NCBI GenBank assembly: GCA_964638395.1
Contig: CAZWZZ010000001.1
Location: 17,450 to 53,721, forward strand
DNA length: 36,272 bases
From: an uncultured Caldilineaceae bacterium
Lineage (GTDB): Bacteria > Chloroflexota > Anaerolineae > 4572-78 > J111
Reading direction: 5' to 3'
How positions within the stretch are numbered: the stretch's first letter is position 1; each line of letters starts with the position of its first letter. A program made the position numbers and the translations under genes. Of this stretch, positions 1-20,278 are shown one piece after another. The notes under the pieces were generated by a model. It was given only the letters and a program-made list of their open reading frames with translations, did not search any database and was not told where the DNA came from.

Positions 1-665
1 AATTCATCTTTTTCCACGTGGCTAAAGTGGCCGGTCTCAGCTTGCGACAGGCTCTCAAGCCGTACACGCAGGAACCGGCACAGTTCAAAATCAAGCGCCC
101 TCCCCGGCACAGAAACGGCCGGCTCAACCCGCTGTATGAAATGTGGGAGTCGGCGTTGACCCACGCTACCGCCGGGGACGCCCGAAAAGCGCTGAATGGG
201 ACGTTCGATCAGTTCTACAAATTTGCCTTTGTCCGTAATCCGTGGGAGTGGCAGGTGTCGATGTACCATTTTTTGCTGAGAGAGATTGGCAATCCCCGGT
301 ATGAACAGGTGAAAGCGATGTCCGGTTTTGAGGCGTATCTGGAGTGGGTCATCGCTGCCAAAAATCCTTACCCGAAAGGGGCCACCAAGCTCCAAAGCGA
401 GATGCTGACCGATGAGGCGGGCCGGATTCTGGTGGATTTCGTGGGCCGGTATGAAAATCTGACCGTTGATTTTGCGTATGTCTGCCGGGTCTTGAATATC
501 AAAGCGTCGTTGCCCCATCTCAACCAGACGAAGCATCGGGATTATCGCACTTATTACAATGCCCGCACCCGGCGCTTGGTAGCCGATTATTTCCGGGCCG
601 ACATCGAGTTGTTTGGATACAGATTTGAGGGCCTGGCCACCGGAGCAAACTATCATGTTAATTGA
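1..665 (+). CDS. Sulfotransferase (family-2-like), 5' end cut by the window edge
   Basis: Frame is open from nt 3: FIFFHVAKVAGLSL resembles the PAPS 5'-phosphosulfate-binding loop (FxHxPKxxGxS). RNPWEWQVSMYHF resembles the 3'-phosphate-binding RxPxxRxxS region. The GTG at 18 in the ORF track is probably internal. Confidence 0.6.
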   Translation, partial: FIFFHVAKVAGLSLRQALKPYTQEPAQFKIKRPPRHRNGRLNPLYEMWESALTHATAGDARKALNGTFDQFYKFAFVRNPWEWQVSMYHFLLREIGNPRYEQVKAMSGFEAYLEWVIAAKNPYPKGATKLQSEMLTDEAGRILVDFVGRYENLTVDFAYVCRVLNIKASLPHLNQTKHRDYRTYYNARTRRLVADYFRADIELFGYRFEGLATGANYHVN

Positions 666-2808
666 GTTGACTATCACCGGCGCCCTGGCTTATGCCGGTC
701 TAAAATCGTATCTCAATCATCAACGTAAACCAAAATTGGTACAGATCATCCAGCCACCCTCCAAACAAAAAGGGTGGATCGAGAAAACAGAACAGACATT
801 GGCCGGATTACTCCCGTTTCAAAATAAGCAGCGGCAACAGTTGCAGGTGATTTCTGAAGCCCCCCTCGAGGTCAGTGAGGCGGAACAGGTCATTAACCGG
901 GATCTGAAACTTTCGCTGGTCACGTTAGGTTTGACGACAGCCGGTTTCCTCTTCAACCCTTTGTTGACCTGGATCAGTGTCCCCGGCTTGATCTATCTCC
1001 AAATACCGTTCCTCAAAACCGGCTACCGCGAACTGATCCGGGAAAAACGGGTCGGGCAGGGCGTGCTTGATAGCACCATCACGGTTGTGTTGTTATGGTT
1101 ACGTTATTTTTGGCTAACAGCCTCATTTTTGACCTTGATGAACTTGAGCTTGAAGTTGATTTTGAAAACTCAAGACAAGTCACGCCAAAAATTGGTCAAC
1201 ATTTTGGGGGATATGCCTCAATTTGTATGGGTGCTGCGGGGTGAGGTCGAGGTTCAAATCCCGCTGGAAAAATTAACCGTTGGCGACGTGGTCGTGATTA
1301 ATCCGGGTGAAATGATCCCCATAGATGGGCGGGTGGCCGCGGGGGCCGGCAGCGTCAACCAACACCGCCTGACCGGGGAAGCCGGCCTGGTGGAAAAGGA
1401 GGTGGGCGACAGCGTCTTGGCCACAACGATTTTGTTGTCGGGCCGACTGTTCATCCGGGTCGAAAAGGCCGGTAGTGAAACCGTCGCGGCTCAAATCGGA
1501 CAGATTTTGAATCAAACCGCCGATTATAAAAGTACGCTGCAAACCCGGGGAGAAATGATTGCCGATAAGGGCGCGTTACCCACGCTGGCCCTGAGCGCCG
1601 TCACATTGCCCATACTGGGACCGGTGGGGGCGGCCACCATTTTACTGTCCTCATTTGGTTATAACATGCGTATCTTTGCGCCCATTAGCGTCCTCAACTT
1701 CCTACAGATAGCGGCTGACCATAGCATTTTGGTGAAGGATGGTCGGGCTTTGGAAACATTGCGGGCAGTCGATACCATCGTGTTCGACAAAACCGGAACC
1801 TTGACCGAAGAGCAGCCTTATGTGGCTGCTGTTCACGCCTGTAGCGCCTACAATGAAAAAATAATTTTACAATATGCCGCTTCCGCCGAATACCGGCAAA
1901 CCCACCCGATTGCTTTGGCTATTTTAGACAAAGCTGCCCGCGACCATCTTGATTTATTCCCCGTCACCGAGGCTAATTACGACGTGGGCTACGGCTTGAA
2001 AGTCAACGTTGCCGGTAAATTAGTCTGCCTCGGCAGCAAGCGCTTTCTGCAACGGGAAAATATGACGATTCCCGATAGCCTGCTCACTCGTCAAATGTAT
2101 TGTGATGAATGTGGGCATACCCTGGTCTATGTGGCGCTGGATCGTGTGGTCATTGGGGCGCTGGAACTGCATCCCACCATTCGCCCGGAGGTCAGGCAGG
2201 TGGTGCGTGAGTTGCAACGGCAGGGTCTAAACGTCTACATCATCTCCGGCGATCATGAAAAGCCCACCCAACATCTGGCCCACAAGTTGGGTATCTCCCA
2301 CTATTTTGCCGAGGTATTGCCGGACGATAAAGCCCGGCTGGTCAGAGAATTACAGGAGGTAGGCCGGACGGTTTGTTTTGTGGGCGATGGCATCAATGAC
2401 GCCATTGCCCTCAAACAGGCCAATGTTTCTGTCTCCTTGCGGGGTGCCGCCTCGGTGGCCATTGATACGGCTCAAGTGATTTTGATGAGCCAAAACTTGA
2501 GCCATTTGTTGACTCTCCTAAAGCTGGCCCAAAAACTGGATAAAAATATGACCACCAATTTATGGTTGACCCTTATCCCCGGCGTCGTATGTGTCGGCGG
2601 AGTCTACCTGGTGCATCTGGGCGTAGCCGCGGCGCAGATGTTATTTTATGGGGGGCTGGGAGCCGGCGTCGCCAATGGGATGATGCCCTTATTAGAACAT
2701 AAGTGGACAGGGGATCAGGATACGATCAATAATAAGCTGCTCTCAGGGATTTATGATGAAAAATATAGGGACAAGCGCATCTTGAACAACAACACTACAT
2801 CGGATTAG
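655..2808 (+). CDS. Divergent P1B-like P-type ATPase, paralogue 1 (intact, 717 aa from ATG 655)
   Basis: LTGEAGLVEK (TGE), DKTGTLT phosphorylation site, AEYRQTHPIA (P1B-type HP motif), ISGDHE, VLPDDK, GDGINDAIAL hinge. No CxxC/His-rich N-terminus. The segment aligned to the TM CPx motif reads SSFGYNMRIFAP. ATG 655 (MLIELTITGALAYAGLKSY) matches the paralogue N-termini and overlaps the upstream stop by 11 nt; the track start at 613 is less likely. Confidence 0.85.
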   Translation: MLIELTITGALAYAGLKSYLNHQRKPKLVQIIQPPSKQKGWIEKTEQTLAGLLPFQNKQRQQLQVISEAPLEVSEAEQVINRDLKLSLVTLGLTTAGFLFNPLLTWISVPGLIYLQIPFLKTGYRELIREKRVGQGVLDSTITVVLLWLRYFWLTASFLTLMNLSLKLILKTQDKSRQKLVNILGDMPQFVWVLRGEVEVQIPLEKLTVGDVVVINPGEMIPIDGRVAAGAGSVNQHRLTGEAGLVEKEVGDSVLATTILLSGRLFIRVEKAGSETVAAQIGQILNQTADYKSTLQTRGEMIADKGALPTLALSAVTLPILGPVGAATILLSSFGYNMRIFAPISVLNFLQIAADHSILVKDGRALETLRAVDTIVFDKTGTLTEEQPYVAAVHACSAYNEKIILQYAASAEYRQTHPIALAILDKAARDHLDLFPVTEANYDVGYGLKVNVAGKLVCLGSKRFLQRENMTIPDSLLTRQMYCDECGHTLVYVALDRVVIGALELHPTIRPEVRQVVRELQRQGLNVYIISGDHEKPTQHLAHKLGISHYFAEVLPDDKARLVRELQEVGRTVCFVGDGINDAIALKQANVSVSLRGAASVAIDTAQVILMSQNLSHLLTLLKLAQKLDKNMTTNLWLTLIPGVVCVGGVYLVHLGVAAAQMLFYGGLGAGVANGMMPLLEHKWTGDQDTINNKLLSGIYDEKYRDKRILNNNTTSD

Positions 2809-4258: not shown

Positions 4259-4269
4259 GGAGGCGTCGA

Positions 4270-4698: not shown

Positions 4699-4701
4699 CC
4701 T

Positions 4702-5382: not shown

Positions 5383-5939
5383 AACCAAAACAATTTGATG
5401 GCGCCCTCATCGAGGAAGGCGTTAGCCTCATCTTAAAGGGCCTGGGCGAAGATTTGAACCGGGAAGGGTTACTCGACACCCCTAAACGGGTGGCCAAGAT
5501 GTATCGAGAAATATTTTGTGATAGTTCATTCAACGGTACGCAATTTTGCAATAGTGAGCAATACAACCAGATCGTTATGGTCCGCGATATTCCCTTTTAT
5601 TCGTTATGTGAACATCACATGTTGCCGTTTTTTGGCACAGCCACAGTTGGCTACATTCCCCAAAAAACGTACCTGGGGCTATCAAAATTAGCCCGGGTGG
5701 TTGATCTTTACAGCCGTCAACTGCAAGTACAGGAGCGCATGACGATGCAGATCGCCGATTGGTTGTGGGAACAGACGAACCCGGCCGGCGTTGGGGTTAT
5801 GGTCAAAGCCAGACATTTATGCATGGAGATGCGCGGCATTCAAAAGATTGGGAGTGAAACAGTCACTACCGCCACGTTGGGGGTATTTCGGACAGACAAG
5901 GAAATCGAAGATAGGTTTATGCGTTTCATAGGCGTATAG
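5373..5939 (+). CDS. folE: GTP cyclohydrolase I
   Basis: LLDTPKRVAKMY, SLCEHHMLPFFG, RQLQVQERMT and ARHLCMEMRG are classical FolE motifs. Overlaps the queE stop by 10 nt. Confidence 0.9.
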   Translation: MHMKPKQFDGALIEEGVSLILKGLGEDLNREGLLDTPKRVAKMYREIFCDSSFNGTQFCNSEQYNQIVMVRDIPFYSLCEHHMLPFFGTATVGYIPQKTYLGLSKLARVVDLYSRQLQVQERMTMQIADWLWEQTNPAGVGVMVKARHLCMEMRGIQKIGSETVTTATLGVFRTDKEIEDRFMRFIGV

Positions 5940-5953: not shown

Positions 5954-7165
5954 ATGTTTCAACTCGAAATACAACCGCCCGCCGAAATGAATAGCTGGCT
6001 CGACTCTATCAGGGCCGACCTGGGCCACTGTGACCCCCTTGAGACCTTCCGTCGCCGCTGGCAGACGGCCCACGAGCGGTTTGGGCGAGACCCGGTCGGC
6101 GAGTTGGCCTACCGGGATGCCTGGCTCTATTTTCAGGAGAAGGTTCATCCTCTGGTGCGCCGCAAGCTGACGGCGGAGAGCGAAGGGCGTCAGGCCGCCC
6201 GGAAGATCGCGGCCATTTTTGAGCCGGATGCCCCGCCCCAACGGATCAACCGGCAGATGGTGGCTCACATGCGGCAACAGCGTTTAGAGCCAACAAGACC
6301 TGGCAGCTTTTTGAAACCGACCAGGTCGGACCGGCCTGATTTCGACCGGCCTATTTTTATCGTTTCCGCGCCGAGGGCGGGTAGCAGCCTGTTGTTTGAA
6401 ACGCTGGCCCGCTTTGCCGAGGTGTGGACGATTGGGCAGGAAAGCCACGACATCGAGGCCGACCTGCCGGCCCTCCATCCGGCCACCCACGCCTACGCCT
6501 CCAACCGCTTGACCGCCGCCGAGGCCACACCGGCGGTCAGGCAAGCGATGGGGGATTGGTTTGGCCGCCGCTTGCAGGATAGAGAGGGCCGGTTGTATCA
6601 GGCGCTCCCGGCGGAAAAACGGCCGGCGGCGGTTCGCTTTCTGGAAAAGACGCCCAAGAACGCCCTGCGGATCCCCTTCCTGAAAGCCATTTTCCCCGAT
6701 GCTCGCTTCATCTACTTATACCGGGAACCGCGCCAGAACATCAGCAGCATGTTGGAAGGCTGGCGATCCCGCCGCTTTGTGGCCTATCGAGGCCTCCCCG
6801 GCTGGCCCTACAAAGAGTGGAGTTTTCTATTGGTACCGGGCTGGGAGCAGTGGTTCGATAAACCGCTGGTGGAGATTGCGGCCTATCAATGGCAAATTAC
6901 CAACGAGACGATCCGGGCCGATTTGCAACCATTGCCGACGGATTGCTGGCATCGGGTCGATTATGAGGCGTTAATCAACCGCCCCGCCGAAACCATCAAA
7001 CGGATCAGTGATTTTGCAGCGTTTAGCTGGACGGCTGAGATCGCAGAGCGGCTGGCCCGGCCGTTGCCGGTGTCACACATGGCCGTCTCGCCTCCCGCGG
7101 CGGATAAGTGGCGGAAGTATGAGGCGGAGATCAAGTCCGTTCTGCCCGTGATAAACGTCCAATAG
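5954..7165 (+). CDS. Sulfotransferase (P-loop PAPS-binding type) with a ~130-aa N-terminal extension
   Basis: IFIVSAPRAGSSLLFETL (5'-PSB loop, PRxGS[ST]) and RFLEKTPKNALRIPFL are typical of bacterial Sulfotransfer_3-like enzymes. The first ~130 aa have no motif I recognise. Confidence 0.7.
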   Translation: MFQLEIQPPAEMNSWLDSIRADLGHCDPLETFRRRWQTAHERFGRDPVGELAYRDAWLYFQEKVHPLVRRKLTAESEGRQAARKIAAIFEPDAPPQRINRQMVAHMRQQRLEPTRPGSFLKPTRSDRPDFDRPIFIVSAPRAGSSLLFETLARFAEVWTIGQESHDIEADLPALHPATHAYASNRLTAAEATPAVRQAMGDWFGRRLQDREGRLYQALPAEKRPAAVRFLEKTPKNALRIPFLKAIFPDARFIYLYREPRQNISSMLEGWRSRRFVAYRGLPGWPYKEWSFLLVPGWEQWFDKPLVEIAAYQWQITNETIRADLQPLPTDCWHRVDYEALINRPAETIKRISDFAAFSWTAEIAERLARPLPVSHMAVSPPAADKWRKYEAEIKSVLPVINVQ

Positions 7166-7228
7166 GTAGCAAGGAGATCATAAAAATTATGGTAGCCATT
7201 GATAATTTTGCAACAACGGAGGTTTTAT

Positions 7229-10200
7229 ATGGACAAAGAATACGCCATAGCCCCAAAGCTTGATATTGACGGGGGCGCTTATGCTGAATTTTATGTGCTA
7301 CGAAAAAATGCCTCTACTATGACACAAGCCACCATTGAATGGTTTCATAATCATGTAGATGTTTGGTTGAGAGAGGTCACGCATGAAAATGAGAGCCACC
7401 TCCCGGCTATATTAAGCGTTGGCAGTGGGGAAGGCGACATAGATATCGAAATCATTAAGGCTATTCAGCCATACTTGGGTTCAAAAAAATTAAAATATGA
7501 TGCCCTTGAGCCTAATTTGCGCCATTATGAACGTTTCTTAGACAGGATAAATAGGATGCCGCTAGACGCATCCCTCAGTTTAGCCATCTATAATGTATAT
7601 TTTGATCAATTCAGCACCAATCAACAGTATGATGTCGTTTTGCTCATTCATGTCCTTTACTATTTTGATGATCCATATCAAGCCATCCGACAGGCTTTAA
7701 GATATACCAAACCAGGCGGACGAGTCGTTATTATTCACCAATCCTCTACGGGTATTCCTGAAATTCAACGTAAACATATGTATAAGCTAAAGAGCAACGT
7801 GGATGAGTTGTTTACCACCGATGATATCAAAAAATCACTTGATAATGGGGGTGAGCAATATCGTTTTTTTAACATTGATGCCCATTTAGAGGTCACGGAA
7901 TGTCTTAAACGGTCTGAAGTTGGGTTAAAAATAATGTCATTTTGTATGGAATGTGATTTGAGCCAAATTGATAAGTTAAGATTGAATCTTTTGGCTCAAT
8001 CTTTCTCTGACCTTGCGGTGAGTCGGGGCAATGGTAAGTCTTTTATTTATGAACCGCTCGGCGCGTTCATCGTTGATAATCCTAAAACAAAAAGATTGCC
8101 CCAGGATAGGGATTGTGTTGAAGATTATCGCCAACTAGCTCAAAAATTTGAATGGTCTAAAACATTTTTGGACAAAAAAAATTCAAATATCAGAGTCCTG
8201 GATGTGGGTTGTGGAACGGGGCGCTGGTTGCAGGCGTTCCTGATGTATGTGACCCCACAACTGCCCAATTTGGAGATACTGTACGATCTGGTAGACCCTT
8301 CCGAACAGGCTATGTCACAAGCTCTCGTTAAGATAGAGCATCCGCTAAAAATTGGTCACCAATATATAGATACTATTCAGCAAGCCAGGCTAGACCAAAG
8401 TCGTTATGATATTATTTGGTCGATGCATGCTTTCTATGCGATTCCCCGCCCTGACCTCCCTCACGTTTTAGGCAAAATATCTAACCACCTTAACGATCAG
8501 GGTCAGGCGTTTATCGCTCAAGCAACTAAAAAATCGTTTTATGTTCGATTTTACGATAAATTTCTTGAGACATTTCATTGCAACGAAGCTGGTTTTACGT
8601 CAGCAGAGGATATTGTGGCAGCCTTGAACATGCTTGGGCTGGAATATCAGGTGTACGCTATTTCTTATGATGAATGTATAGCTGAAGAGGACTTGATCGC
8701 CCTGGAACATTACATCATGAAAGAATCTGCCAGCAACTCTTTCAGATGGGAAGATGTCTCTGCCCAGGAAGCCAACAGAGAAGTCGGTCTACAAGATGTG
8801 CTGAATGATCCGAGTCTGGGGGCATACCTCCGTTCTTTTATAAAAGAGTCGATGTACTGTTTTACCCAAGAAATATGGCTCATATCGTTTGGGAAGAAAG
8901 AAAATGGGGCTAATCATTTTCATAACAATCATAAACAATCGTTTGATTACCTTGATAAAAATAAACAAAACAGTGTAGTTGACCCCTTGTTACCCGATGA
9001 GACGGAAATGCGTCAACTCGTTGACACAGCAATGAAATTTATCGTGCAGTGTCAGCTAGATACTGCTAAGTTTCCCCTCAATGGCTCTGGGTTTAAGTGG
9101 GTCCACACCGATGACTTCAATCGTGAGTATGAAGATATGCTTACGTTAGCCAAAACAGTTGAAGCGCCTCTACCTGAAGATGGCGAGCCTCATTTTGAAA
9201 AAATCTTGCACGATCTATTCTTTCGACTGACTCCCTACAGCACCAATGATAACAGCGGTGGATATCTGGCCTATGTGCCTGGTGGGGGGCTTTTTCATGC
9301 CGCTCTAGCCGACTTTATCTCCCTATCGCTCAACCGCTATGTGACAATGTTCATGGCCGCGCCGGGCTTGGCGGCCATTGAAGAGCAAGTTATCCGTTGG
9401 CTATGTGATATTGTGGGTTTTTCCAATGAGGCAGGGGGTGTCATTACCTCAGGCGGTTCTACAGCCACTTTTGTGGCTATCCATACCGCTCGGACTGACA
9501 AGCTATCCAACAAAGAATTGTTAAACGGGGTCGCCTATATGAGTGACCAGACTCACCTGTGCGTTGAGCAAGGACTGCATCTTTGTGGGTTTTCCAAACA
9601 GAATATACGTAAAATCCCCGTAGATAGTAACTTCCGTATCCGAACTGATCTCCTGGCACAAACCATTGAGCAAGATAGGGCGGCTGGCCTCCACCCCTTC
9701 TTGTTGGTTGCTAATGCGGGGACGGCCAATACCGGGGCCGTGGATAATTTACTACAAACTGCAAGAATTGCTAGAAACTATAACCTGTGGTTTCACGTTG
9801 ATGCTGCTTATGGTGGATTTTTTCTGTTGACCAAACAAGGGCAGACATTAATGAAGGGCATTGAGCAAGCTGACTCGCTTGTTCTTGATCCCCACAAATC
9901 TTTATTTTTGCCGTATGGCACAGGCGGGTTATTGGTCAACGACAAAACAAAACTGCTAAATGCCTTCACCTTTACCGGAAGTTATTTACCCCCTACTCAA
10001 AAACAGAAAGCAACTGATCCTCTGCTCGATGACATCATGAATCTTTCTCAAGAAGTAAGCAGAGATTTTAGAGGTTTTAGAATATGGTTGCCCTTAAAAA
10101 TGCTTGGCGTGAAGCCCTTCCGTGAGCAACTGGAAGAAAAGTTAAAACTGACTCGCTGGGTGACTGACCAGCTACAACAAATCCCCAATCTTCGGATTGT

Positions 10201-10480
10201 TGCGCCCCCACAACTTTCGGTGGTGACCTTTAAATTAGAGCCTACCGACTTTGATGTTTCTGACGAAGAACTGGATCAGCTTAATAAAAATTTCTTAGAT
10301 GCCATTAACCGGCGAGGGAATATTTTTCTTTCACCGTTTAAGTCCAAAGATAACGTCATCGGAGAATTTGCGCTACGCATGGCTATACTCTCCCATCGAA
10401 CAAAGCAGGAGCATCTCCGGCAAGGCGTCAGCGACATTCAATCAGCCGTAGAGGAAACATTATCGGGTTCGCAATGTTGA
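7229..10480 (+). CDS. Tri-domain protein: HNMT-like N-methyltransferase + class-I SAM methyltransferase + group-II PLP-dependent amino-acid decarboxylase
   Basis: Domain 1: ILSVGSGEGDIDIEII...LEPN...YDVVLLIHVLYYFDD (histamine-N-methyltransferase-like pattern). Domain 2: IRVLDVGCGTGRWL (motif I, nt ~8190-8230). Domain 3: HVDAAYGGF and LDPHKSLFLPYGTGG (PLP-Lys, nt ~9888) of DOPA/Tyr/His/DABA decarboxylases. ATG 7229 has an ACGGAGG SD; the track start at 7199 is TTG. Confidence 0.75.
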   Translation: MDKEYAIAPKLDIDGGAYAEFYVLRKNASTMTQATIEWFHNHVDVWLREVTHENESHLPAILSVGSGEGDIDIEIIKAIQPYLGSKKLKYDALEPNLRHYERFLDRINRMPLDASLSLAIYNVYFDQFSTNQQYDVVLLIHVLYYFDDPYQAIRQALRYTKPGGRVVIIHQSSTGIPEIQRKHMYKLKSNVDELFTTDDIKKSLDNGGEQYRFFNIDAHLEVTECLKRSEVGLKIMSFCMECDLSQIDKLRLNLLAQSFSDLAVSRGNGKSFIYEPLGAFIVDNPKTKRLPQDRDCVEDYRQLAQKFEWSKTFLDKKNSNIRVLDVGCGTGRWLQAFLMYVTPQLPNLEILYDLVDPSEQAMSQALVKIEHPLKIGHQYIDTIQQARLDQSRYDIIWSMHAFYAIPRPDLPHVLGKISNHLNDQGQAFIAQATKKSFYVRFYDKFLETFHCNEAGFTSAEDIVAALNMLGLEYQVYAISYDECIAEEDLIALEHYIMKESASNSFRWEDVSAQEANREVGLQDVLNDPSLGAYLRSFIKESMYCFTQEIWLISFGKKENGANHFHNNHKQSFDYLDKNKQNSVVDPLLPDETEMRQLVDTAMKFIVQCQLDTAKFPLNGSGFKWVHTDDFNREYEDMLTLAKTVEAPLPEDGEPHFEKILHDLFFRLTPYSTNDNSGGYLAYVPGGGLFHAALADFISLSLNRYVTMFMAAPGLAAIEEQVIRWLCDIVGFSNEAGGVITSGGSTATFVAIHTARTDKLSNKELLNGVAYMSDQTHLCVEQGLHLCGFSKQNIRKIPVDSNFRIRTDLLAQTIEQDRAAGLHPFLLVANAGTANTGAVDNLLQTARIARNYNLWFHVDAAYGGFFLLTKQGQTLMKGIEQADSLVLDPHKSLFLPYGTGGLLVNDKTKLLNAFTFTGSYLPPTQKQKATDPLLDDIMNLSQEVSRDFRGFRIWLPLKMLGVKPFREQLEEKLKLTRWVTDQLQQIPNLRIVAPPQLSVVTFKLEPTDFDVSDEELDQLNKNFLDAINRRGNIFLSPFKSKDNVIGEFALRMAILSHRTKQEHLRQGVSDIQSAVEETLSGSQC

Positions 10481-10504: not shown

Positions 10505-11871
10505 ATGGCTTTTACAGGCATTTTAGCGACCGGCGGCATCGTCTATGTTGGCCTAAAAACCTACCGGCGTCTGTCTAAAAAACAGAATTTATTATATCAG
10601 TCGTTAACAGAGGAAGAGGCTCAAACATCTCTGGCTACTTCTACCAGGCATACAATGGCCTCAGCAGAAATGAGTCAGGATCATGTAGACCCGCTTGCCC
10701 AACGGCGGGCAACCAACCATTACCTGGCGGCTTCTTCGGTTGGCCTGGGGTTGGCTCTGGTCGGGGCTGTTGGGTATCCTCTGGTCAGTCTGCTCAGCGT
10801 GCCGGTTTCGCTCTATGCGTATGGTGATATTTTGCGAGCCGGCTACCACGCTCTGTTCAAAGAACGACGTCTACGAGCCGCCGTGCTTGATTCTATCATC
10901 ACCTTTGGGTTAGTTATATCGGGCTACTACATCGCCACGGCTCTATCAAACTGCGTCTATTTCTTGGGAGTCCGGTTGTTGTTGCAAACTGAGGATGCCT
11001 CTCGCCAAAGCCTGACAAATTTATTTGGTGAACAACCACGCCTCGTCTGGCGACTCGTCGATGGCGCGGAAGTGGCCACCCCGTTTGAGGCGATTCAACG
11101 GGGCGATGTGGTCGTGGTTAATGCCGGGGAGATGATTCCGGTCGATGGCCGGATTGTGCAGGGTATCGCCTCGGTTGACCAGCAGAAATTGACGGGCGAA
11201 TCCCAACCCGTTGACAAAACGCCGGGAGACCACGTTTTGGCAGCGACGCTCGTTTTGGCCGGTCAACTCTATATCGAGGTGGAAAAGGCCGGGACGGAAA
11301 CCATTGCTGCTCAAATCGGCGAGATTTTAAGCCGCACCGCAGATTTCAAAGCAACCATCGAGGCCCGGAGCCAACAGATTGCTGACAAATCTGTTTTACC
11401 AACCCTTGGGGCCGGGCTGTTGGCCTTGTTGACCTTAAATCCCATTAAGGCCATAGCCACCATCTCCGCTAATTATTCGGAGATACTCCGCATCGCCGGG
11501 CCGTTGGGGATGTTGAATTTTCTGCACCTGGCGACCGAGAACGGTATCTTGGTTAAGGATGGTCGCTCCCTGGAACTACTCACCGAGATCGATACGGTGG
11601 TTTTTGACAAAACCGGGACATTGACGTTGGAGCAACCGTCGGTGGGCCAAATTCATTGCTGTGCTGACTTATCGGCCGATGAGGTGCTGGTCTATGCCGC
11701 CACCGCCGAATACCGGCAAACGCATCCCATCGCCAGGGCAATTCTACAGGCGGCGCCGGTGTGGCCAACGCCATGCTGCCTCGGCTAAACCGCCACCGGC
11801 TGCTGGCCGCGCCGGATAATTCTCAGCAAGTTTCACTTGTACCAAATAATGCGGAGAAAATCAAAATTTGA
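10505..11871 (+). pseudogene. P1B-like ATPase paralogue 2, internally deleted and frameshifted
   Basis: Collinear with paralogue 4 through TGES, DKTGTLT and AEYRQTHPIARAILQAA (nt ~11750). It then jumps out of frame to the last ~38 codons (AGVANAMLPRLNRHRLLAAPDNSQQVSLVPNNAEKIKI*, ending 11871). The hinge GDGINDA, ISGD and the C-terminal TMs are missing. The in-frame reading stops at 11788. Confidence 0.85.
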
Positions 11872-12042
11872 CCTCAACTCACACCAAAGAAATCGCCGTG
11901 ATTGGATTAGGCTGTCGATTTCCGGGTGGTGTGAAAGGGAGTTGCTAACTGTCGGAAAATTTCCGCTGTTGTGTACTACTGCTTATATATCAGGAAGAAA
12001 ACAAAATGAATGATGCAGTCCGCTTAGAAGATAATAAAATAA
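11794..12042 (+). repeat. 249-bp direct repeat, copy A (identical to 20201..20449)
   Basis: Base-by-base comparison of the two stretches shows no mismatch. The ~35 bp upstream are similar but not identical. Identity ends abruptly at 12042/20449. Confidence 0.95.
11868..11948 (+). pseudogene. Remnant of a type-I polyketide ketosynthase 5' end (copy A)
   Basis: TTG-initiated 26 codons (M)TSTHTKEIAVIGLGCRFPGGVKGSC*. EIAVIGLGCRFPGG matches the conserved N-terminal KS motif IAI[IV]G[ML][GS]CR[FL]PG[GA]. The TTG overlaps the ATPase stop (TTGA). Confidence 0.55.
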
Positions 12043-12830
12043 CCAGGCAACATTGGTGGACACGTGACGATTTACAATATAAAGATGGTCATCTCAACTT
12101 TGCCGGACAGGATATGGTGACGGTTGTCAACTCAACTGAAACGCCGGTCTATTTTTATAGTTCTGCCCGTGTTCAGCAGAATATCCAGCGCAAGTTAATG
12201 GCGATGGTCAAAGGGGATTTGCTTGAATGGGGGCCAGCTAATATTCAGTGTCGGGGGTTACAAGATGGCACGTTGAATCTGATATTACGGCATCGGTTTG
12301 AAATGGAGCTGGCCCAATATCAAACCAGCCCCGATTTACGGGTTAGCTTTCGGGAACAGATTGCCGAGCTACGGCAGGAGAACAACTCGTTGCGAGGTAA
12401 GTTGGCCCACGTAACGGGGAAGATGGCGGAGTACCAGCTGGCCAATGCGTTTCGCAGCCGGAAACGCTTTAAGCCGGTTGATTTTTTTGAATTTGCTTCT
12501 CCCTCTGAACCTGTCGAAACAAAACTGAATTTCCTTGATGTGCAGACACGGATTATCATCCAGCGGGCTGATGGTAAGCGGATGGAGTTAGATATCGTGG
12601 CCGAGTCGAGTGAGGGGCCGGTACTGCTGGTGGAAGTTCGCAAACGGCAGGTGAAATCGAATGGGAATGATGTGGCCGATTTTCAAGAAAAGGTGGCGGT
12701 TTATCAAACCTTGCATCCGGGTCGCATCGTGTTGGCGGGGTTTCTCTCCCTTGGTGGGTTTACTGAAGATGCCCGGCAGTTGTGTGAGCAGTCGGGTATT
12801 GGCTGGAGTGAAGAGTTGCGATATTTTTAA
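12006..12830 (+). CDS. Chimeric ORF: decarboxylase-like N-terminal ~65 aa joined to a PD-(D/E)xK nuclease-like (DUF234-like) C-terminal module
   Basis: ITRQHWWTRDDLQYKDGHLNFAGQDMVTVVNSTETPVYFYSSARVQQNIQRKL parallels ITLWWERSDLCYQENRLTFAGQDVAAIAQQSGIPTFLYNAHRVAHNLRRL of the next gene, but the PLP-binding barrel never follows. The C-terminus (ELDIVAESSEGPVLLVEVRKRQ...FLSLGGFTEDA) resembles the nuclease-fold tails of archaeal-type ATPases. Possibly non-functional. Confidence 0.45.
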   Translation: MNDAVRLEDNKITRQHWWTRDDLQYKDGHLNFAGQDMVTVVNSTETPVYFYSSARVQQNIQRKLMAMVKGDLLEWGPANIQCRGLQDGTLNLILRHRFEMELAQYQTSPDLRVSFREQIAELRQENNSLRGKLAHVTGKMAEYQLANAFRSRKRFKPVDFFEFASPSEPVETKLNFLDVQTRIIIQRADGKRMELDIVAESSEGPVLLVEVRKRQVKSNGNDVADFQEKVAVYQTLHPGRIVLAGFLSLGGFTEDARQLCEQSGIGWSEELRYF

Positions 12831-12867
12831 GTAGCTGAAACTACCGTTTTTGTTTAAGGAGATCAAT

Positions 12868-16665: not shown

Positions 16666-18156
16666 ATGGATCGAAAAATGAACAAACAAGACCAGATACC
16701 AATCTTAGAGAATTTGGTTCAATGTAGTAATTACGACGGCCTACAGTTTTATTTTCCCGGTCATAAGCAAGGTCGTTTTTTTTCAGACAAGCTAAAACAA
16801 ATCTTGGGTCAGCACACATTAGCCATCGATCTCCCTTCAATTGATGGAGAAACCGACAATACGTTTCATTCTGAGGGATGTATCAAGCTGGCCCAAGAAC
16901 TAACTGCCGAGTTGTACGGAGCGACTCACACTCGTTTTTTGGTTCATGGGGCCACAAGTGGAGTTATTACAGCCATTATGACGGCTGTTTCTCCCAACCA
17001 AGCCATCTTATTACCTCGTAATATTCATCGTTCCGTTGTATCAGGGCTAGTTCTTTCTGGATCCCGCCCAGTATACCTAATGCCCCAATCCCACCCTATG
17101 TCTATGTATAGTGCCTTATCTGTTTCGGTTGACCAAGTGAGGCAAGCATTTGAACAACATTCGGACCTGGGGGCAATGCTACTTACCCGACCAACCTACT
17201 ATGGTATTGCTAATAACAACATCAAAGAAATTGCTCAAATCTGCCACGACCATAATTGCCCTTTAATTGTTGACGAATCTCACGGGAGCCACCTTCAATT
17301 CTTACCAGAGGGCTATCCGACATCAGCACTGAAACTATTAGCTGATGTTGTCATTCAAAGCCCTCATAAAACACTCGGCTCCCTGAGTGGCACTGCCCAA
17401 CTTCATATTGGACACAATGCTTTAATTGATATAGACCGCTTGCAACTCATGCTGAATACCTTACAGAGTACTAGCCCCAACTATATTCTCCTGGCCTCCC
17501 TTGATGCAACTCGACACATGATGTGGCAACAAGGTCGCCACTTGTTTGCTAAAACAGTTAAACAGGTGGAAGCATTGCGAGACCAAATTGAGGCTATACA
17601 TGGGATGACATGTGCTCTCCTTGACCCAAGATTAGCCGAACAAGGGTATCAGGCTGATCCCTTGCGGTTGGTGGTCAACTTTAGTGAGATGAATCTGTCA
17701 GGGTTTACGGCCGCAGAAATTTTAGAAAAAGAATATGGGATCCGTTGGGAAATGCGTGATCACCATAACATTATCCTTGTACTTAGCCCTCAAGATGGTG
17801 TAGCAATGTATAAGCAATTGGTAGCGGCTTTACAGGCCTTGGCTAACAAATATTCTTCAACAGTCGAAACAAGTGCTCCTAAATATGATGTAATTGAAAC
17901 TATCCCCTTACCTATATTAGAACTTCTACCTAGAGAAGCCGTTTTTAGCCATAAAGCTGTGGTTCCCTTTAACCAAGCCCACGCTAAAATTTGTGGAGAG
18001 ATAGTGACTACTTACCCGCCAGGGATTCCAATTCTCTGTCCGGGCGAAGTAATATCAAAAGAGATTATTGAGTTTTGTCTATTTCTTAAAGCCCAACAAG
18101 CTGATATTTACGCTACGGATTCTTCACTAGAATCGTTTGTTGTTGTTGACCAATGA
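16666..18156 (+). CDS. Orn/Lys/Arg decarboxylase family (fold-type I PLP enzyme, SpeA/YaaO-like)
   Basis: FYFPGHKQG at the N-terminus and VIQSPHKTLGSLSGTA (S-x-HK PLP-lysine) are typical of the OKR_DC_1 major domain. The ~490-aa size fits. Confidence 0.75.
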   Translation: MDRKMNKQDQIPILENLVQCSNYDGLQFYFPGHKQGRFFSDKLKQILGQHTLAIDLPSIDGETDNTFHSEGCIKLAQELTAELYGATHTRFLVHGATSGVITAIMTAVSPNQAILLPRNIHRSVVSGLVLSGSRPVYLMPQSHPMSMYSALSVSVDQVRQAFEQHSDLGAMLLTRPTYYGIANNNIKEIAQICHDHNCPLIVDESHGSHLQFLPEGYPTSALKLLADVVIQSPHKTLGSLSGTAQLHIGHNALIDIDRLQLMLNTLQSTSPNYILLASLDATRHMMWQQGRHLFAKTVKQVEALRDQIEAIHGMTCALLDPRLAEQGYQADPLRLVVNFSEMNLSGFTAAEILEKEYGIRWEMRDHHNIILVLSPQDGVAMYKQLVAALQALANKYSSTVETSAPKYDVIETIPLPILELLPREAVFSHKAVVPFNQAHAKICGEIVTTYPPGIPILCPGEVISKEIIEFCLFLKAQQADIYATDSSLESFVVVDQ

Positions 18157-18169
18157 TGTAATAGGACAC

Positions 18170-20278
18170 ATGCCAGAAATGATCATTACAAAAATTCTTT
18201 TGATTGGTGGAGCCATTTACCTAAGCACAAAAACACACCTCTTTCACAAAAAAAATAATTTGGCGACTGTTTTAACGTCTCCTGATAAACCACAAACTCC
18301 CGTAAAACATACTGACACATTGACCACTTTGCTACCATCTCGATTTAGGGCATTATTAGAAAGTGATGAACAGACAGAAGAGGAGCAAATAGTCAACCAT
18401 TATCTTGTTGTTTCAGTTGCGGCAACAGGATTAGCGGCCCTGGGTGGTCTATTTTATGCTCCATTGTCGGTAGCTAGTTTGCCGTTGAGTATCTATACCT
18501 GTGTACCAATTTACCAAATTGCCTACCAAGCCTTGGTTAAAGAGGGGCGGCTCCGAGCAGAATTTGTCGATGCTATCGCGCTTACAGGAATATTTTTTAC
18601 GAGATATTACTTCGCTTTAGCTTTAGGCTCAGTCCTTTATTTTACGGGAAGTAAATTTATGTTGAGAACCGAGGATAACTCCCGTAAAAATCTGACCAAC
18701 CTATTTGGTGAGCAACCCCGTATGGTCTGGCGGGTCGTGGATGGGGTAGAGGTGGAAACGCCGTTTGAAGCCCTCAGACCGGGAGATGTTATTGTGGTCA
18801 ATGCCGGGGAGATGGTGCCGGTTGATGGTCGCATTGTGGAGGGGCATGGCTCACTCGATCAACATAAGCTGACCGGTGAATCCCAACCGGCGGAAAAGGG
18901 GCCGGCAGACCCAGTGTTTGCGGCTACCGTTCTGCTTGCCGGTCGGCTTTATATCCAAATCGAAAAGGCTGGCTCGGAAACGGTGGCGGCCCAAATTGGC
19001 GAGATATTGAATCGCACCACCGATTTCAAAAGCCTGATTGAAGCCCGTAGCCAGAAGTTGGCCGATCAGTTGGTTCTCCCGACTCTCGGTGTCGGTACTT
19101 TGGCCCTGTTAAGCCGGGGTCTGGTTGGTGGGGTGGCAGCCATCTCAGCCAACTTTTCCGACGTGTTCCGCGTCGTCGGCCCCTTGGGTATGCTGAACTT
19201 CCTGCAACTGGCAACCAAAGAGGGCATCTTGATCAAAGATGGCCGCTCGTTGGAACTGCTCAACCAAGTTGATACGGTGGTGTTCGACAAAACCGGCACC
19301 TTGACCCTAGAACAACTCCAAGTCAGCCAGATTCATGCTTGCGGCACCTTTTCCGAAGATGAACTGCTAACCTACGCTGCCACCGCCGAACATCGCCAAA
19401 GCCACCCCATCGCCAAAGCGATTCAACAGGCGGCCATCGAGCGCAACCTCACCTTGCCCCCACTCGATGAGGCCAGTTACGAAGTGGGTTACGGTCTGCG
19501 AGTGCGGATTGGGGCGCACCAGGTACGGGTCGGCAGTGCCAGATTTATGAATCTGGAGCAGATTACCTTACCGGAATCGATTCACCTGGCTCAAACCGAA
19601 GCCGCAGAAAACGGCCATTCGTTGGTCTACCTGGCCGTGGATGACGACTTAGCCGGGGCCATTGAACTCCAGCCGACCATCCGCCCGGAAGCCAAGCAGG
19701 TGATTGCCGACCTCAAGAAACGGGGCCTATCTCTCTATATCATCTCCGGCGACCACGAACAGCCGACCCGCACCCTGGCCGCCGCGTTGAGTATCGATCA
19801 CTATTTTGCCGAGGTTTTGCCGGAGGATAAGGCCAATTTAGTAGCGCAGTTGCAGCAAGCGGGGCGTTGTGTCTGTTTTGTGGGGGATGGCATCAACGAC
19901 TCGATAGCTCTGAAAAAAGCCAATGTTTCCATCTCGATTCGAGGCGCTTCGACCATCGCTACCGACACGGCCCAAATCGTTCTGATGAACCAGAGCTTGA
20001 GCCAACTCGACACGCTGTTTCAGATAGCCCACGACCTCGATACAAATATGAGGAGCAATCTGGTCATCACCTTTGGGCCGGGTCTGTTCTGTGTGGGCGG
20101 CGTTTTCTTTTTACATTTTGGCATCCTGAGCGCCGTCGCGCTTTACAACGTGTCTCTGGTCGCCGGCGTGACCAACGCCATGCTGCCCTGGCTACAGCGT
20201 CACCGGCTGCTGGCCGCGCCGGATAATTCTCAGCAAGTTTCACTTGTACCAAATAATGCGGAGAAAATCAAAATTTGA
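18170..20278 (+). CDS. Divergent P1B-like P-type ATPase, paralogue 4 (intact, 702 aa from ATG 18170)
   Basis: LTGESQPAEK, DKTGTLT, AEHRQSHPIA, ISGDHEQ, VLPEDK, GDGINDSIAL. The CPx position reads AISANFSDVFRVVGP. ATG 18170 (MPEMIITKILLIGGAIYLSTKTH) lies just after the upstream stop; the track start at 18137 is TTG inside the previous gene. Confidence 0.85.
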   Translation: MPEMIITKILLIGGAIYLSTKTHLFHKKNNLATVLTSPDKPQTPVKHTDTLTTLLPSRFRALLESDEQTEEEQIVNHYLVVSVAATGLAALGGLFYAPLSVASLPLSIYTCVPIYQIAYQALVKEGRLRAEFVDAIALTGIFFTRYYFALALGSVLYFTGSKFMLRTEDNSRKNLTNLFGEQPRMVWRVVDGVEVETPFEALRPGDVIVVNAGEMVPVDGRIVEGHGSLDQHKLTGESQPAEKGPADPVFAATVLLAGRLYIQIEKAGSETVAAQIGEILNRTTDFKSLIEARSQKLADQLVLPTLGVGTLALLSRGLVGGVAAISANFSDVFRVVGPLGMLNFLQLATKEGILIKDGRSLELLNQVDTVVFDKTGTLTLEQLQVSQIHACGTFSEDELLTYAATAEHRQSHPIAKAIQQAAIERNLTLPPLDEASYEVGYGLRVRIGAHQVRVGSARFMNLEQITLPESIHLAQTEAAENGHSLVYLAVDDDLAGAIELQPTIRPEAKQVIADLKKRGLSLYIISGDHEQPTRTLAAALSIDHYFAEVLPEDKANLVAQLQQAGRCVCFVGDGINDSIALKKANVSISIRGASTIATDTAQIVLMNQSLSQLDTLFQIAHDLDTNMRSNLVITFGPGLFCVGGVFFLHFGILSAVALYNVSLVAGVTNAMLPWLQRHRLLAAPDNSQQVSLVPNNAEKIKI

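Follow-up and report, generated by a model that had tools for sequence, protein, structure and literature searches.

The stretch of DNA analysed here (the window) is 36,272 nucleotides long and comes from an uncultured Caldilineaceae bacterium. It encodes a 1083-residue polypeptide in which two methyltransferase domains (MT1 and MT2) precede a group-II, PLP-dependent decarboxylase domain. The gene, its parts and the neighbours considered below are:

613..2808, + strand: intact paralogue, CPC-less P-type ATPase (context)
5954..7165, + strand: sulfotransferase (Sulfotransfer_3, Pfam), co-directional, 64 nt 5' of the fusion
7218..7222, + strand: ribosome-binding site GGAGG (sequence reading)
7229..10480, + strand: MT1–MT2–decarboxylase fusion, 1083 aa (ORF reading and Pfam; same domain order in full-length homologues)
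7229..8128, + strand: MT1, HNMT-fold SAM methyltransferase domain, aa 1–300 (best PDB match HNMT; Foldseek)
8129..8896, + strand: MT2, second HNMT-like SAM methyltransferase domain, aa about 301–556 (Pfam; best PDB match HNMT)
8897..9109, + strand: linker between MT2 and the decarboxylase, aa about 557–627, low-confidence and little conserved (pLDDT, alignment)
9110..10480, + strand: group-II PLP-dependent decarboxylase domain, aa 628–1083 (PF00282; PDB matches)
10505..11788, + strand: truncated CPC-less P1B-like P-type ATPase, 427 aa, 25 nt 3' of the fusion, ending soon after DKTGT
18137..20278, + strand: intact paralogue, CPC-less P-type ATPase (context), overlapping the end of an Orn/Lys/Arg decarboxylase gene
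20743..22914, + strand: intact paralogue, CPC-less P-type ATPase (context)

A TTG-initiated open frame spans 7199..10480 (+), and the ATG at 7229 gives the 1083-residue product. This start is supported because the GGAGG sits 6 nt 5' of the ATG; the database entries P0001, P0019 and P0020 all have 1083 residues, the length counted from ATG 7229. The earlier note had described one polypeptide at 7229–10480 and had raised a frameshift or an assembly join between domains as the alternative. The frame was found to be uninterrupted and the fusion needs neither explanation; P0019 and P0020, from two other assemblies, encode the same 1083 residues at 99.8% identity. That three separate genes were joined by frameshift or mis-assembly gains a little from Thioploca, where locus L004 carries the MT–MT pair and the decarboxylase as two overlapping ORFs in different frames, so that split forms exist. 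However, with the frame unbroken, the length identical in two other assemblies, and fused homologues in unrelated samples keeping the order MT1–MT2–decarboxylase at 34–64% identity, the chance of such an artefact is negligible and this reading is effectively refuted. The fusion is a real, rare single gene joining an amino-acid decarboxylase to two HNMT-like methyltransferase domains. Among 1.84 billion representative proteins, only a few clusters have this architecture, which the earlier note had called unusual.

The motifs and residues on which the domain assignments rest were located by sequence reading (methyltransferase motifs) or residue mapping (decarboxylase):

aa 61–72, nt 7409–7444, + strand: MT1 SAM motif I, ILSVGSGEGDID
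aa 93, + strand: MT1 LEPN motif, including Glu94
aa 141, nt 7649–7666, + strand: MT1 HVLYYF motif
aa 323–333, nt 8195–8227, + strand: MT2 motif I, VLDVGCGTGRW
nt 8291–8302, + strand: MT2 Asp356-Pro357 (VDPS), acidic residue after strand 2
nt 9248–9253, + strand: Asp674-Asn675, clade signature
nt 9332–9340, + strand: Asn702-Arg703-Tyr704 loop
aa 887–890, nt 9887–9898, + strand: PLP-binding Lys890 in DPHK
nt 9983–9985, + strand: catalytic-loop Tyr919

Pfam methyltransferase models match two separate stretches, about aa 45–182 and 309–437 (Methyltransf_23, 2.3e-25), the second, in MT2, being covered by Methyltransf_23/12/25. Human HNMT is the best PDB sequence match of MT1 (3.2e-10, aa 13–241 against HNMT 10–246) and also of MT2 (4.3e-4); the cores of the two domains share 23% identity. 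The AlphaFold2 model of aa 1–580 has a pLDDT of 81.9, and its top five Foldseek matches are all HNMT (target-normalised TM 0.82–0.86, rmsd 2.7–3.2 Å), with the two-subdomain fold of that enzyme present; other single-domain methyltransferases reach about 0.5–0.68. SAM motif I and the acidic residue after strand 2 are found in both domains and are invariant across the family. In 13 MT–MT sequences the invariant residues are G65, G67, G69, D70, D72, E94, H141, Y144 and Y145 of MT1, and C328, G329, G331, R332, W333, D356 and P357 of MT2. MT1 is thus a methyltransferase by Pfam, PDB match and Foldseek, and its motifs mirror those of HNMT, as had been proposed. MT2 had been called a generic class-I SAM methyltransferase; the class and the VLDVGCGTGRW motif stand, while "generic" does not, HNMT being its best match.

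HNMT binds its ligand through the polar residues Glu28, Gln143 and Asn283 (PMC9867436). The first two are replaced by Met31 and His141, both family-invariant, and the HMMER alignment to HNMT ends before Asn283. Histamine is not inferable as the substrate, because the likeness to HNMT is one of fold and SAM site and not of histamine contacts. Assignment as an HNMT orthologue (EC 2.1.1.8) was rejected: the fold is HNMT-like, but Glu28 and Gln143 are not kept. Nor does a predicted HNMT-type fold alone prove N-methylation over O- or S-methylation.

The linker that follows MT2 has a pLDDT below 50 at aa 559–580 (AlphaFold2) and falls in a gappy region of the homologue alignment. Beyond it, Pyridoxal_deC (PF00282) matches aa 645–1003 (4e-62; 210.6 bits against a cut-off of 27; profile positions 9–374 of 375), which, with DPHK at 887–890, agrees with the earlier assignment of the third domain. 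Its best PDB match is 4OBU (3e-68), the R. gnavus tryptophan decarboxylase, followed by DOPA, tyrosine and aromatic decarboxylases. Lys890, His776, Asp858 and Tyr919 align with Lys303, His192, Asp271 and Tyr332 of pig DOPA decarboxylase, giving the group-II catalytic residues (PLP Lys, stacking His, pyridine-N Asp and loop Tyr). The 154 clade members keep the PLP Lys, His and Asp with few or no exceptions, and the loop residue is Tyr in 141 and Cys in nine, Cys also being found in P0005. In the seven full-length and 13 MT–MT sequences compared, which go down to about 30% identity, the SAM motif residues and, in the decarboxylase, His776, Asp858, Lys890 and Arg945 are all invariant.

The substrate pocket departs from that of DOPA decarboxylase. 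Of the pocket residues of the pig enzyme (1JS3), Trp71 corresponds to Asp674, Phe80 to Val683, Thr82 to Gly685, Ile101' to Tyr704, Phe103' to Thr706 and Gly354 to Ser944. An AADC orthologue (EC 4.1.1.28-type pocket) was rejected, the aromatic pocket residues being replaced. The predicted pocket is polar (Asp674, Asn675, Arg703, Tyr704 and Ser944) instead of an aromatic box. The Asp-Asn pair, aligned with Trp71-His72 of the pig enzyme, is present in every decarboxylase linked to MT1–MT2 and in those of the split loci, in two of the five MT2–decarboxylase proteins examined and in a minority of stand-alone clade members; Thr-Ala takes its place in most other clade members. Against the decarboxylase domain, no NCBIfam equivalog model comes anywhere near its cut-off.

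Given that both methyltransferase domains match HNMT best, in sequence and in fold, the protein might be a histidine decarboxylase (HDC) and an HNMT in one chain, making histamine and methylating its ring and/or side-chain nitrogen to yield a methylhistamine signal. Ser944 aligns with Gly354 of DOPA decarboxylase, a position that in human HDC is the specificity-determining Ser354. Two relatives of the decarboxylase (P0065 and P0104) carry fused FGE-sulfatase domains, whose fold is also that of the histidine-thiolating EgtB and OvoA, and in the Steroidobacteraceae an ELIC/GLIC-like ligand-gated channel lies 3' of the gene. However, Ser or Thr occupies position 944 in 152 of the 154 clade sequences and is therefore not diagnostic; the match to the NCBIfam HDC model, at 63.6 bits, stays well short of the cut-off of 305, human HDC ranks only 16th–17th among the PDB matches, and Glu28 and Gln143 of HNMT have given way to invariant Met and His. 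We consider a histidine pathway improbable.

Homology and residue conservation show one cytosolic polypeptide with three predicted active sites. Our preferred reading, which we hold to be moderately probable, is an enzyme that decarboxylates an amino acid and then N-methylates the product, making a cationic amine that is perhaps handled by an ATPase. In the first step, the C-terminal PLP domain would make a primary amine by decarboxylating an L-amino acid; in the second, the two HNMT-fold SAM domains would methylate nitrogens of this amine, so that the product would carry two or three methyl groups and be strongly cationic. Methylation of the alpha-nitrogen would have to follow decarboxylation, because the external aldimine of a PLP decarboxylase forms only through a free alpha-amino group. 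In a third, more tentative step, the CPC-less P1B-like ATPase that goes with the enzyme in most lineages may handle the product by export, sequestration or charge balancing. The amino acid and the methylated atom are not readable from homology, because the contacts of HNMT and DOPA decarboxylase are not conserved.

The same modules are arranged in several ways. The order MT1–MT2–decarboxylase is found in the query, P0002, P0005, P0027, P0029, P0032 and L109, and MT2–decarboxylase in P0022, P0028, L001 and L061; P0024 is permuted to decarboxylase–MT2–MT1, P0042 has decarboxylase–MT2, and adjacent separate genes occur in Thioploca (L004), Parabeggiatoa (L003) and Thiomargarita (L002). Because the modules recur permuted, shortened and as neighbouring genes, functional coupling is favoured and an assembly artefact disfavoured. 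The predicted coupling of decarboxylation to amine methylation, which had been suggested from the window alone, is strongly backed by the four fusion orders, the adjacent genes and the invariant catalytic residues. Marine filamentous cyanobacteria and giant sulfur bacteria are the main hosts of the MT–MT family, with Okeania, a Trichodesmium MAG, Hydrocoleum, Moorea and Symploca among them. Marine cyanobacterial MT–MT genes without a decarboxylase lie in a cassette with a class I/II aminotransferase, an amine-forming PLP enzyme, together with a 2-hydroxyacid dehydrogenase and a class II aldolase. The fusions of L001 and L061 are followed by an NNMT/PNMT/INMT-family gene (4.7e-35; NNMT 3e-26), and that of L062 by an MTS-type methyltransferase gene.

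The methyltransferase domains might act on something other than the decarboxylase product: a side-chain atom before decarboxylation, or an unrelated O, S or C atom; or one of them might be a non-catalytic binding domain. Class-I methyltransferase folds are chemically versatile, with S-methyltransferases (TmtA, GtmA) and O-methyltransferases among the lower Foldseek matches, and MT1 is dispensable in some lineages (the MT2–decarboxylase and decarboxylase–MT2 forms). Both SAM sites are invariant, however, and the repeated independent fusions, the amine-forming PLP partners and the extra NNMT/PNMT-family N-methyltransferase point to amine N-methylation, making another target highly improbable.

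The most consistent neighbour is the CPC-less P1B-like ATPase, present at eight independent loci (the window, L060, L109, L002, L003, L004, L016 and L019). An intact orthologue directly adjoins the fused or split genes at L060, L109, L002, L003 and L004, and MT–MT at L016 and L019; the sources of L002, L003, L004, L016 and L019 are Thiotrichales-type sulfur bacteria, Caldilineaceae and Entotheonella. The three intact window copies match the subfamily profile TIGR01525 with 384–415 bits (cut-off 346). The Cys-Pro-Cys motif (xPC/CPx) before DKTGT is absent from the four window copies, which have SSFGYN, ANYGSN, ANYSEI and ANFSDV, and from eight ATPases of related loci (SGFGYN, SCFGYQ, SCIGDN, SCVGDN, SFGYS, SFGYQ, SYIGSD). 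Pfam finds E1-E2_ATPase and Hydrolase/HAD_2 only, with no N-terminal heavy-metal-associated (HMA) domain. The link between ATPase and enzyme is only positional, and the window copy beside the fusion is truncated. No such ATPase lies within 10 kb of the Steroidobacteraceae and Nostoc forms; the Steroidobacteraceae also have a Castor-like (Castor/Pollux-RCK) channel, and other lineages have a dCache sensor kinase and an NNMT/PNMT-like methyltransferase instead of the ATPase.

The island in the window contains Gat-QueC/QueD/QueE/FolE 7-deazapurine genes and two sulfotransferases; an MscS is also encoded in the window. The fusion has a GC content of 0.433 and a GC3 of 0.426, against 0.61 and 0.735 for the upstream sulfotransferase and 0.542 and 0.593 for the downstream ATPase fragment. 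The remark in the earlier note that the gene is AT-richer than its neighbours thus holds for the immediate ones, but the property is not unique, three further island genes (12850–18156) having a GC3 of 0.37–0.40. Co-directional spacing is tight: 15 nt separate FolE from the sulfotransferase, the fusion starts 64 nt further on, and the ATPase fragment comes 25 nt after the fusion. This spacing, and the NRPS pieces, amidinotransferases and carbamoyltransferases that the ATPase clade adjoins in metagenome loci, would suit a methylated amine that is an intermediate for a larger island-encoded metabolite. Against this, Que genes and relatives of the sulfotransferase lie near the fusion in no other related locus, a GC3 gap of 0.13–0.3 separates the fusion from its Que and sulfotransferase neighbours, and recent shuffling of the island, not one co-evolved operon, is suggested because the island contains gene remnants. 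A role as building-block supplier is very unlikely.

Osmotic or ionic balance, and not signalling or toxicity, would be served if an amino acid that is small and either polar or acidic, of the serine, homoserine, aspartate, glutamate or cysteate type, were turned into a quaternary ammonium compound, with products like choline, homocholine or beta-alanine betaine. Such an osmolyte or counter-ion synthase is consistent with the polar pocket predicted, with the marine cyanobacterial and giant sulfur-bacterial hosts of MT–MT, with ion-handling neighbours (the P-type ATPases, the Castor/Pollux-RCK channel and MscS) and with the sulfotransferase directly upstream in the window; the tandem domains also parallel the di-domain phosphoethanolamine N-methyltransferases of plants and nematodes, the next-best structural matches. 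Yet the fusion also occurs in Lake Mendota MAGs (per ME/Rohwer isolate labels) and a Nostoc, it has no BCCT- or ProU-type osmolyte transporter beside it, and the sulfotransferase, whose GC3 is far from that of the fusion, does not accompany it elsewhere. We regard this reading as possible, although unlikely. A link to the Trichodesmium homoserine methyltransferase Tery_2447 (named in PMC5864184) is possible.

Set beside known systems, the putative decarboxylating and N-methylating enzyme is closest in its methyltransferase part to HNMT (PDB 1JQD/1JQE/2AOT), with TM 0.82–0.86 over about 290 columns that include the HNMT substrate-binding subdomain. The two share SAM motif I (ILSxGxGxGxID), VEPS in HNMT against LEPN in the fusion, and a Tyr-Tyr pair beside the methyl-transfer site. 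Identity is only 18–19%, and HNMT is a single-domain animal enzyme, whereas the fusion has two such domains in tandem and a decarboxylase. The phosphoethanolamine N-methyltransferases (AtPMT1/2, 5WP4/5WP5; PMT-1/PMT-2 of H. contortus and C. elegans) also carry out successive N-methylations of one amine with tandem domains. The fusion shares the two consecutive class-I domains in one chain, and AtPMT1/2, the second-best structural group in Foldseek, align across both. They differ in domain placement (rmsd 18–21 Å), share 9–13% identity, have no decarboxylase domain and are absent from the sequence searches with MT1 and MT2. In the glycine-sarcosine/sarcosine-dimethylglycine N-methyltransferase fusion of halophiles, a tandem pair completes trimethylation; plant Met S-methyltransferase, of roughly 1,080 residues, joins a methyltransferase to a PLP-fold domain that is aminotransferase-like and not a group-II decarboxylase. 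Both serve as precedents of layout; a sequence relationship of either to the fusion surfaced in no search.

The decarboxylase domain shares its fold with aromatic and tryptophan decarboxylases (4OBU; pig 1JS3; plant TyDC/TDC 6EEI/6EEW; E-values 3e-68 to 4e-48), as well as the PLP-Lys in xPHK, the stacking His, the PLP-binding Asp, the catalytic-loop Tyr and a conserved Arg. It is unlike them in that the aromatic pocket of DOPA decarboxylase is replaced, members linked to MT1–MT2 having Asp-Asn, which most of the clade lacks. P1B ATPases (CopA, ZntA) are the best PDB matches of the ATPase neighbour, which keeps TGES, DKTGT and GDGIND. Its helix reads [FIY]-[GS]-[YDSE]-x-x-R-x-x-x-P-x-x-x-LNFL, with no CPC/xPC, and there is no HMA domain; metal ligands of M5/M6 were not found by eye. 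The clade also differs from P1B ATPases in its surroundings, adjoining genes of small-molecule biosynthesis and not of metal resistance.

The open reading frame of the fusion spans 7199..10480 on the forward strand, and the ATG at 7229, with GGAGG upstream at 7218-7222, yields a protein of 1083 amino acids. Three entries in databases, each from an independent assembly, have this same length and are 99.8-100% identical. Pfam places a Pyridoxal_deC domain at amino acids 645-1003 (4e-62; DC), and class-I methyltransferase models match two separate stretches, around amino acids 45-182 and 309-437 (MT1 and MT2). A reading frame so long and uninterrupted, carrying three strong domain matches, cannot be put down to chance.

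Human histamine N-methyltransferase (HNMT) is the best match to MT1 among all PDB sequences (3.2e-10, covering HNMT residues 10-246), and likewise the best PDB match to MT2 (4.3e-4). MT1 and MT2 share only 23% identity over the Rossmann core and are therefore an old pair, not the result of a recent duplication. An AlphaFold2 model of amino acids 1-580, with 13 sequences as input, has a pLDDT of 81.9. In a Foldseek search of the PDB with this model, HNMT takes all top five places (target-normalised TM 0.82-0.86), while other single-domain methyltransferases reach only about 0.5-0.68. The second group after HNMT consists of the di-domain phosphoethanolamine N-methyltransferases of plants and nematodes, both domains of which align with the MT pair, although the domain arrangement differs. 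For DC, the top PDB match is 4OBU (3e-68), the tryptophan decarboxylase of Ruminococcus gnavus, followed by DOPA, tyrosine and aromatic-amino-acid decarboxylases. Against NCBIfam equivalog models, including those for diaminobutyrate (DABA), aspartate, tyrosine, histidine and glutamate decarboxylases, the fusion scores far under every cut-off.

Each motif quoted in the earlier note is present where it had been placed. In alignments of seven full-length proteins (34-64% identity) and 13 sequences of the MT1-MT2 pair (MT-MT; 30-57% identity), the invariant residues are Gly65, Gly67, Gly69, Asp70, Asp72, Glu94, His141, Tyr144 and Tyr145 in MT1; Cys328, Gly329, Gly331, Arg332, Trp333, Asp356 and Pro357 in MT2; and His776, Asp858, Lys890 and Arg945 in DC, the first three of these corresponding to His192, Asp271 and Lys303 of pig DOPA decarboxylase. 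None of the three circumstances that the earlier note had named as counting against its reading applies: the fold of MT1 is that of a methyltransferase, there is no frameshift, and the PLP lysine and SAM motifs are kept in the orthologues. Tyr919 (window 9983-9985) aligns with Tyr332 in the catalytic loop of pig DOPA decarboxylase, the proton donor. Most members keep this Tyr; P0005 and 9 of the 154 sequences of the decarboxylase clade have Cys instead. Several methyltransferase-linked decarboxylases have Cys in this column, the sequences listed being P0005, P0023, P0024, P0033, P0035, P0048, P0055 and P0059. In plant relatives, a Tyr-to-Phe change turns decarboxylases into aldehyde synthases.

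The architecture had been called unusual, and a HMMER search of 1.84 billion representative proteins bears this out, with just a handful of methyltransferase-linked clusters against thousands of decarboxylase relatives. Domain mapping revealed several orders, and in giant sulfur bacteria the modules are encoded by separate adjoining genes.

Orders of the modules in fused proteins (by domain mapping) and in split loci
MT1-MT2-DC: the query, P0027, P0029, P0032 and metagenome locus L109
MT2-DC: P0022 and P0028
DC-MT2-MT1: P0024
DC-MT2: P0042
Parabeggiatoa (L003), separate genes: MT-MT, ATPase, DC
Thioploca (L004), separate genes: ATPase, MT-MT, DC, with two overlapping reading frames
Thiomargarita (L002), separate genes: similar arrangement

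That the modules were fused repeatedly and in different orders, and also exist as split genes, is a classical argument for their serving one pathway. Exact look-ups of the fusion protein and of one ATPase copy gave no record, and a megablast comparison of 25 kb with plasmids had no match; a tblastn search of plasmids returned stand-alone decarboxylases only and no methyltransferase-decarboxylase fusion. Members of the decarboxylase clade are also fused to FGE-sulfatase (EgtB/OvoA-type), adenylation, alpha/beta hydrolase or second decarboxylase domains (P0065, P0104, P0039, P0051, P0046 and P0025).

Many marine cyanobacteria have MT-MT with no decarboxylase beside it; there it belongs to a conserved cassette that also encodes a class I/II aminotransferase, a D-2-hydroxyacid dehydrogenase and a class II aldolase (around 10000-16000 in L008, L010, L012, L013, L014, L015, L021 and L056); a GNAT protein (five loci) and a CmcI-like methyltransferase (four loci) are less constant members. 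The fusion having a decarboxylase and the cassette an aminotransferase, the partner of MT-MT is in both settings a PLP enzyme that generates an amino group. The homoserine-betaine methyltransferase Tery_2447 of Trichodesmium was considered as a possible member of the MT-MT family; no protein of T. erythraeum IMS101 was found among the MT-MT cluster members. Downstream of some fusions lies a third methyltransferase, which belongs to the NNMT/PNMT/INMT family in Nostoc (L001) and metagenome contig L061 (4.7e-35; NNMT 3e-26, PNMT 4e-19, INMT 4e-18) and is of the MTS type in L062.

As judged from the alignments, the fusion carries three conserved catalytic sites and would work as a group-II decarboxylase does, with N-methyltransferases of HNMT fold joined to it. 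In the proposed reaction, DC would decarboxylate an L-amino acid to an amine, which the two SAM domains would then N-methylate. A group-II decarboxylase requires a free alpha-amino group for its Schiff base; methylation of the alpha-nitrogen thus has to follow decarboxylation, and only the side chain could be methylated beforehand. The polar ligand-binding residues of HNMT are Glu28, Gln143 and Asn283 (PMC9867436). In the fusion, Glu28 is replaced by Met31 and Gln143 by His141, Asn283 being outside the alignable part. The residues that form the aromatic pocket in DOPA decarboxylase are replaced as well, with Asp674 for Trp71, Val683 for Phe80, Gly685 for Thr82, Tyr704 for Ile101' and Thr706 for Phe103'. 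Asp674-Asn675 is found in all MT1-MT2-linked decarboxylases, in the decarboxylases of the split loci, in two of five MT2-DC proteins and in a minority of stand-alone members; elsewhere in the clade these positions are mostly Thr-Ala, and in Nostoc-type MT2-DC proteins Thr-Leu or Thr-Asn. We infer that a polar, Asp-containing pocket may speak against a plain aromatic substrate and could fit a basic, hydroxylated or imidazole side chain. An Asn-Arg-Tyr loop and Ser/Thr944 are common across the 154 clade members compared; the loop and Ser944, being general to the wider bacterial clade, were dropped as substrate clues.

All 24 substantial reading frames of the window are on the forward strand.

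Window features discussed here
18-665 (+), sulfotransferase, upstream of the 7-deazaguanine set, past an ATPase gene
613-2808 (+), ATPase copy
2885-5939 (+), Gat-QueC fusion, QueD, QueE and GTP cyclohydrolase I, a compact 7-deazaguanine gene set
5954-7165 (+), sulfotransferase, immediately downstream of that set
7229-10480 (+), MT1-MT2-DC fusion
10505-11788 (+), ATPase copy beside the fusion, truncated after DKTGT; gene remnant
12006-12830 (+), gene remnant
12850-14592 (+), fusion of a SET domain and an Orn/DAP/Arg-type (fold-III) decarboxylase (SET-DapDC)
18137-20278 (+), ATPase copy
20743-22914 (+), ATPase copy
23914-24900 (+), unannotated reading frame
31982-32866 (+), N-terminal ATPase fragment; gene remnant

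Four amine-metabolism genes between 7229 and 18156, encoding the fusion, SET-DapDC, a DUF3326 protein and an Orn/Lys/Arg decarboxylase, have a low GC3 (0.37-0.43). Nearly all remaining genes have values of 0.49-0.74, the unannotated reading frame (0.45) being the sole intermediate, and neighbouring genes differ by up to 0.3. Apart from the two incomplete ATPase genes, the reading frame 12006-12830 looks like a recombination remnant: it has no family match, and its residues 17-74 (58 residues) match the beginning of the DapDC-like decarboxylase domain of the next gene with 33% identity (5e-12). In a relative, L183 (MscS 69% identical), the triple-SBP, MscS and pentapeptide/PBP genes are adjacent, and the amine/ATPase island is absent within 10 kb upstream of them. 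The GC3 contrast, the remnants and the island-free relative place the fusion in a shuffled accessory region, which was probably acquired horizontally.

Compared with L183, window 25042-36201 has a ParA gene, two unknown reading frames and the ATPase fragment inserted between the MscS and pentapeptide genes; the window MscS is 47% identical to proteins of Ardenticatenaceae and "Chloroflexi bacterium TSY". SET-DapDC, 2.4 kb downstream, is a second, unrelated methyltransferase-decarboxylase fusion; it scores 202 bits with the lysA model, under its cut-off, and in metagenome locus L129 an 84%-identical fragment is directly followed by an ATPase gene of the CPC-less clade described below. In other loci, the Que and sulfotransferase genes do not accompany the fusion. 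No TGT/DpdA-type transglycosylase was matched by Pfam among the window reading frames scanned, and Rfam and tRNA scans of the window gave no matches. A defence system was rejected, because the PADLOC matches are only generic (methyltransferase, PLP-fold, QueC).

The only neighbour of the fusion to recur across phyla is a P-type ATPase.

Loci with the ATPase
Window: truncated copy, beside the fusion
L060: beside a 63%-identical fusion
L109, L002, L003 and L004: adjoining fused or split genes
Caldilineaceae L016 and Entotheonella L019: adjoining MT-MT

These ATPases exceed the NCBIfam threshold for the heavy-metal P1B subfamily, and CopA and ZntA are the best-matching structures. However, where metal pumps have a helix with Cys-Pro-Cys, they read [FIY]-[GS]-[YDSE]-x-x-R-x-x-x-P-x-x-x-LNFL, and Pfam detects no HMA domain in them. 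A DNA pattern for LNFL, 26 residues and FDKTGT is present in all four window copies and in at least 120 stretches of metagenomes. In the 80 loci compared, genes located up to 4 kb from the ATPase include the following.

Gene context of the ATPase (80 loci)
Opp/Dpp-type ABC importer parts
NRPS pieces
SxtG/AGAT-type amidinotransferases (six loci, 1.4e-137 to SxtG)
Group-II and Orn/Arg decarboxylases
Flavin amine oxidases; a carbamoyltransferase

By position, the ATPase clade goes with amine- and guanidine-metabolism enzymes rather than with metal-resistance genes, which motivates, short of proof, the idea that it handles organic cations. In L084 (321-8728), genes for a TrpA-like protein, an SxtG-like amidinotransferase (1.4e-137), an Orn/Arg decarboxylase, the ATPase and a carbamoyltransferase follow each other on one strand, resembling a guanidine-alkaloid set. 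About 1.5 kb from the ATPase, L090 (6000-9566) and L107 (3225-6791) encode a protein of 1188 amino acids, composed of a Peripla_BP_6/ANF-receptor domain, a pentameric-channel transmembrane region and an SBP_bac_1 domain; the 1213-residue triple-SBP protein of the window was considered as a homologue of it but is not homologous.

In Steroidobacteraceae, the fusion has a Castor/Pollux-RCK channel on one side and, on the other, a pentameric ligand-gated channel that is ELIC/GLIC-like (ELIC 9e-13), an arrangement that could be a ligand-and-receptor pair. In L006 (7903-14917; also L005, L009, L057 and L058, all metagenome-assembled genomes), the former channel gene is divergent and the latter co-directional with the fusion; ME/Rohwer isolate labels suggest an origin in Lake Mendota. 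In Nostoc and L061, a dCache_1 histidine kinase gene is located upstream, in divergent orientation. There (Nostoc sp. ChiQUE01b L001, 6980-13375; L061, 3114-9838), a shorter MT2-DC protein of 806-825 amino acids is encoded between this sensor kinase and the NNMT/PNMT/INMT-family methyltransferase.

One could join these observations by proposing that fusion and ATPase form a module that makes and pumps an organic cation, the P-type pumps of this bacterial clade having switched from metals to organic ammonium or guanidinium compounds, and that in pump-less lineages the same amine may bind as a ligand to the ELIC-like channel or the dCache sensor kinase encoded next to the fusion. We consider this combined proposal rather unlikely; if true, the amine and its channel or kinase would together make a transmitter-like signalling pair in bacteria. 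Chemically, the enzyme is probably conventional, and what is unusual is the architecture, its permutations and the membrane-protein partners.

A literature search (decarboxylase/N-methyltransferase fusions, HNMT in cyanobacteria, CPC-less P1B ATPases and FUPA families) did not find this family described, and the only names given to members in databases are "methyltransferase domain-containing protein" and "aromatic-L-amino-acid decarboxylase". Should the proposed chemistry hold, bacteria would have a compact route that turns an amino acid into a multiply methylated amine, a class including choline, hordenine, dimethyltryptamine and methylhistamines. Carriers are giant sulfur bacteria, the sponge symbiont Entotheonella, cyanobacteria that form marine mats and blooms, and Steroidobacteraceae of lakes, all ecologically prominent and difficult to culture. 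Substrate channelling between PLP and SAM sites has a clean test case in the permuted and split forms. Whether bacteria make and sense transmitter-like amines, and whether bacterial P-type ATPases pump organic cations, become concrete questions, for which the neighbours supply candidate partners: the P-type ATPase devoid of the metal site, the ELIC-like ligand-gated channel and the dCache sensor kinase.

Among known systems, the tandem-methyltransferase logic of the fusion recalls that of the phosphoethanolamine N-methyltransferases; by its substrate residues it is neither HNMT proper nor an aromatic-amino-acid decarboxylase. For the ATPase clade, were it to pump organic cations, the functional analogue would be the eukaryotic P5B polyamine pumps.
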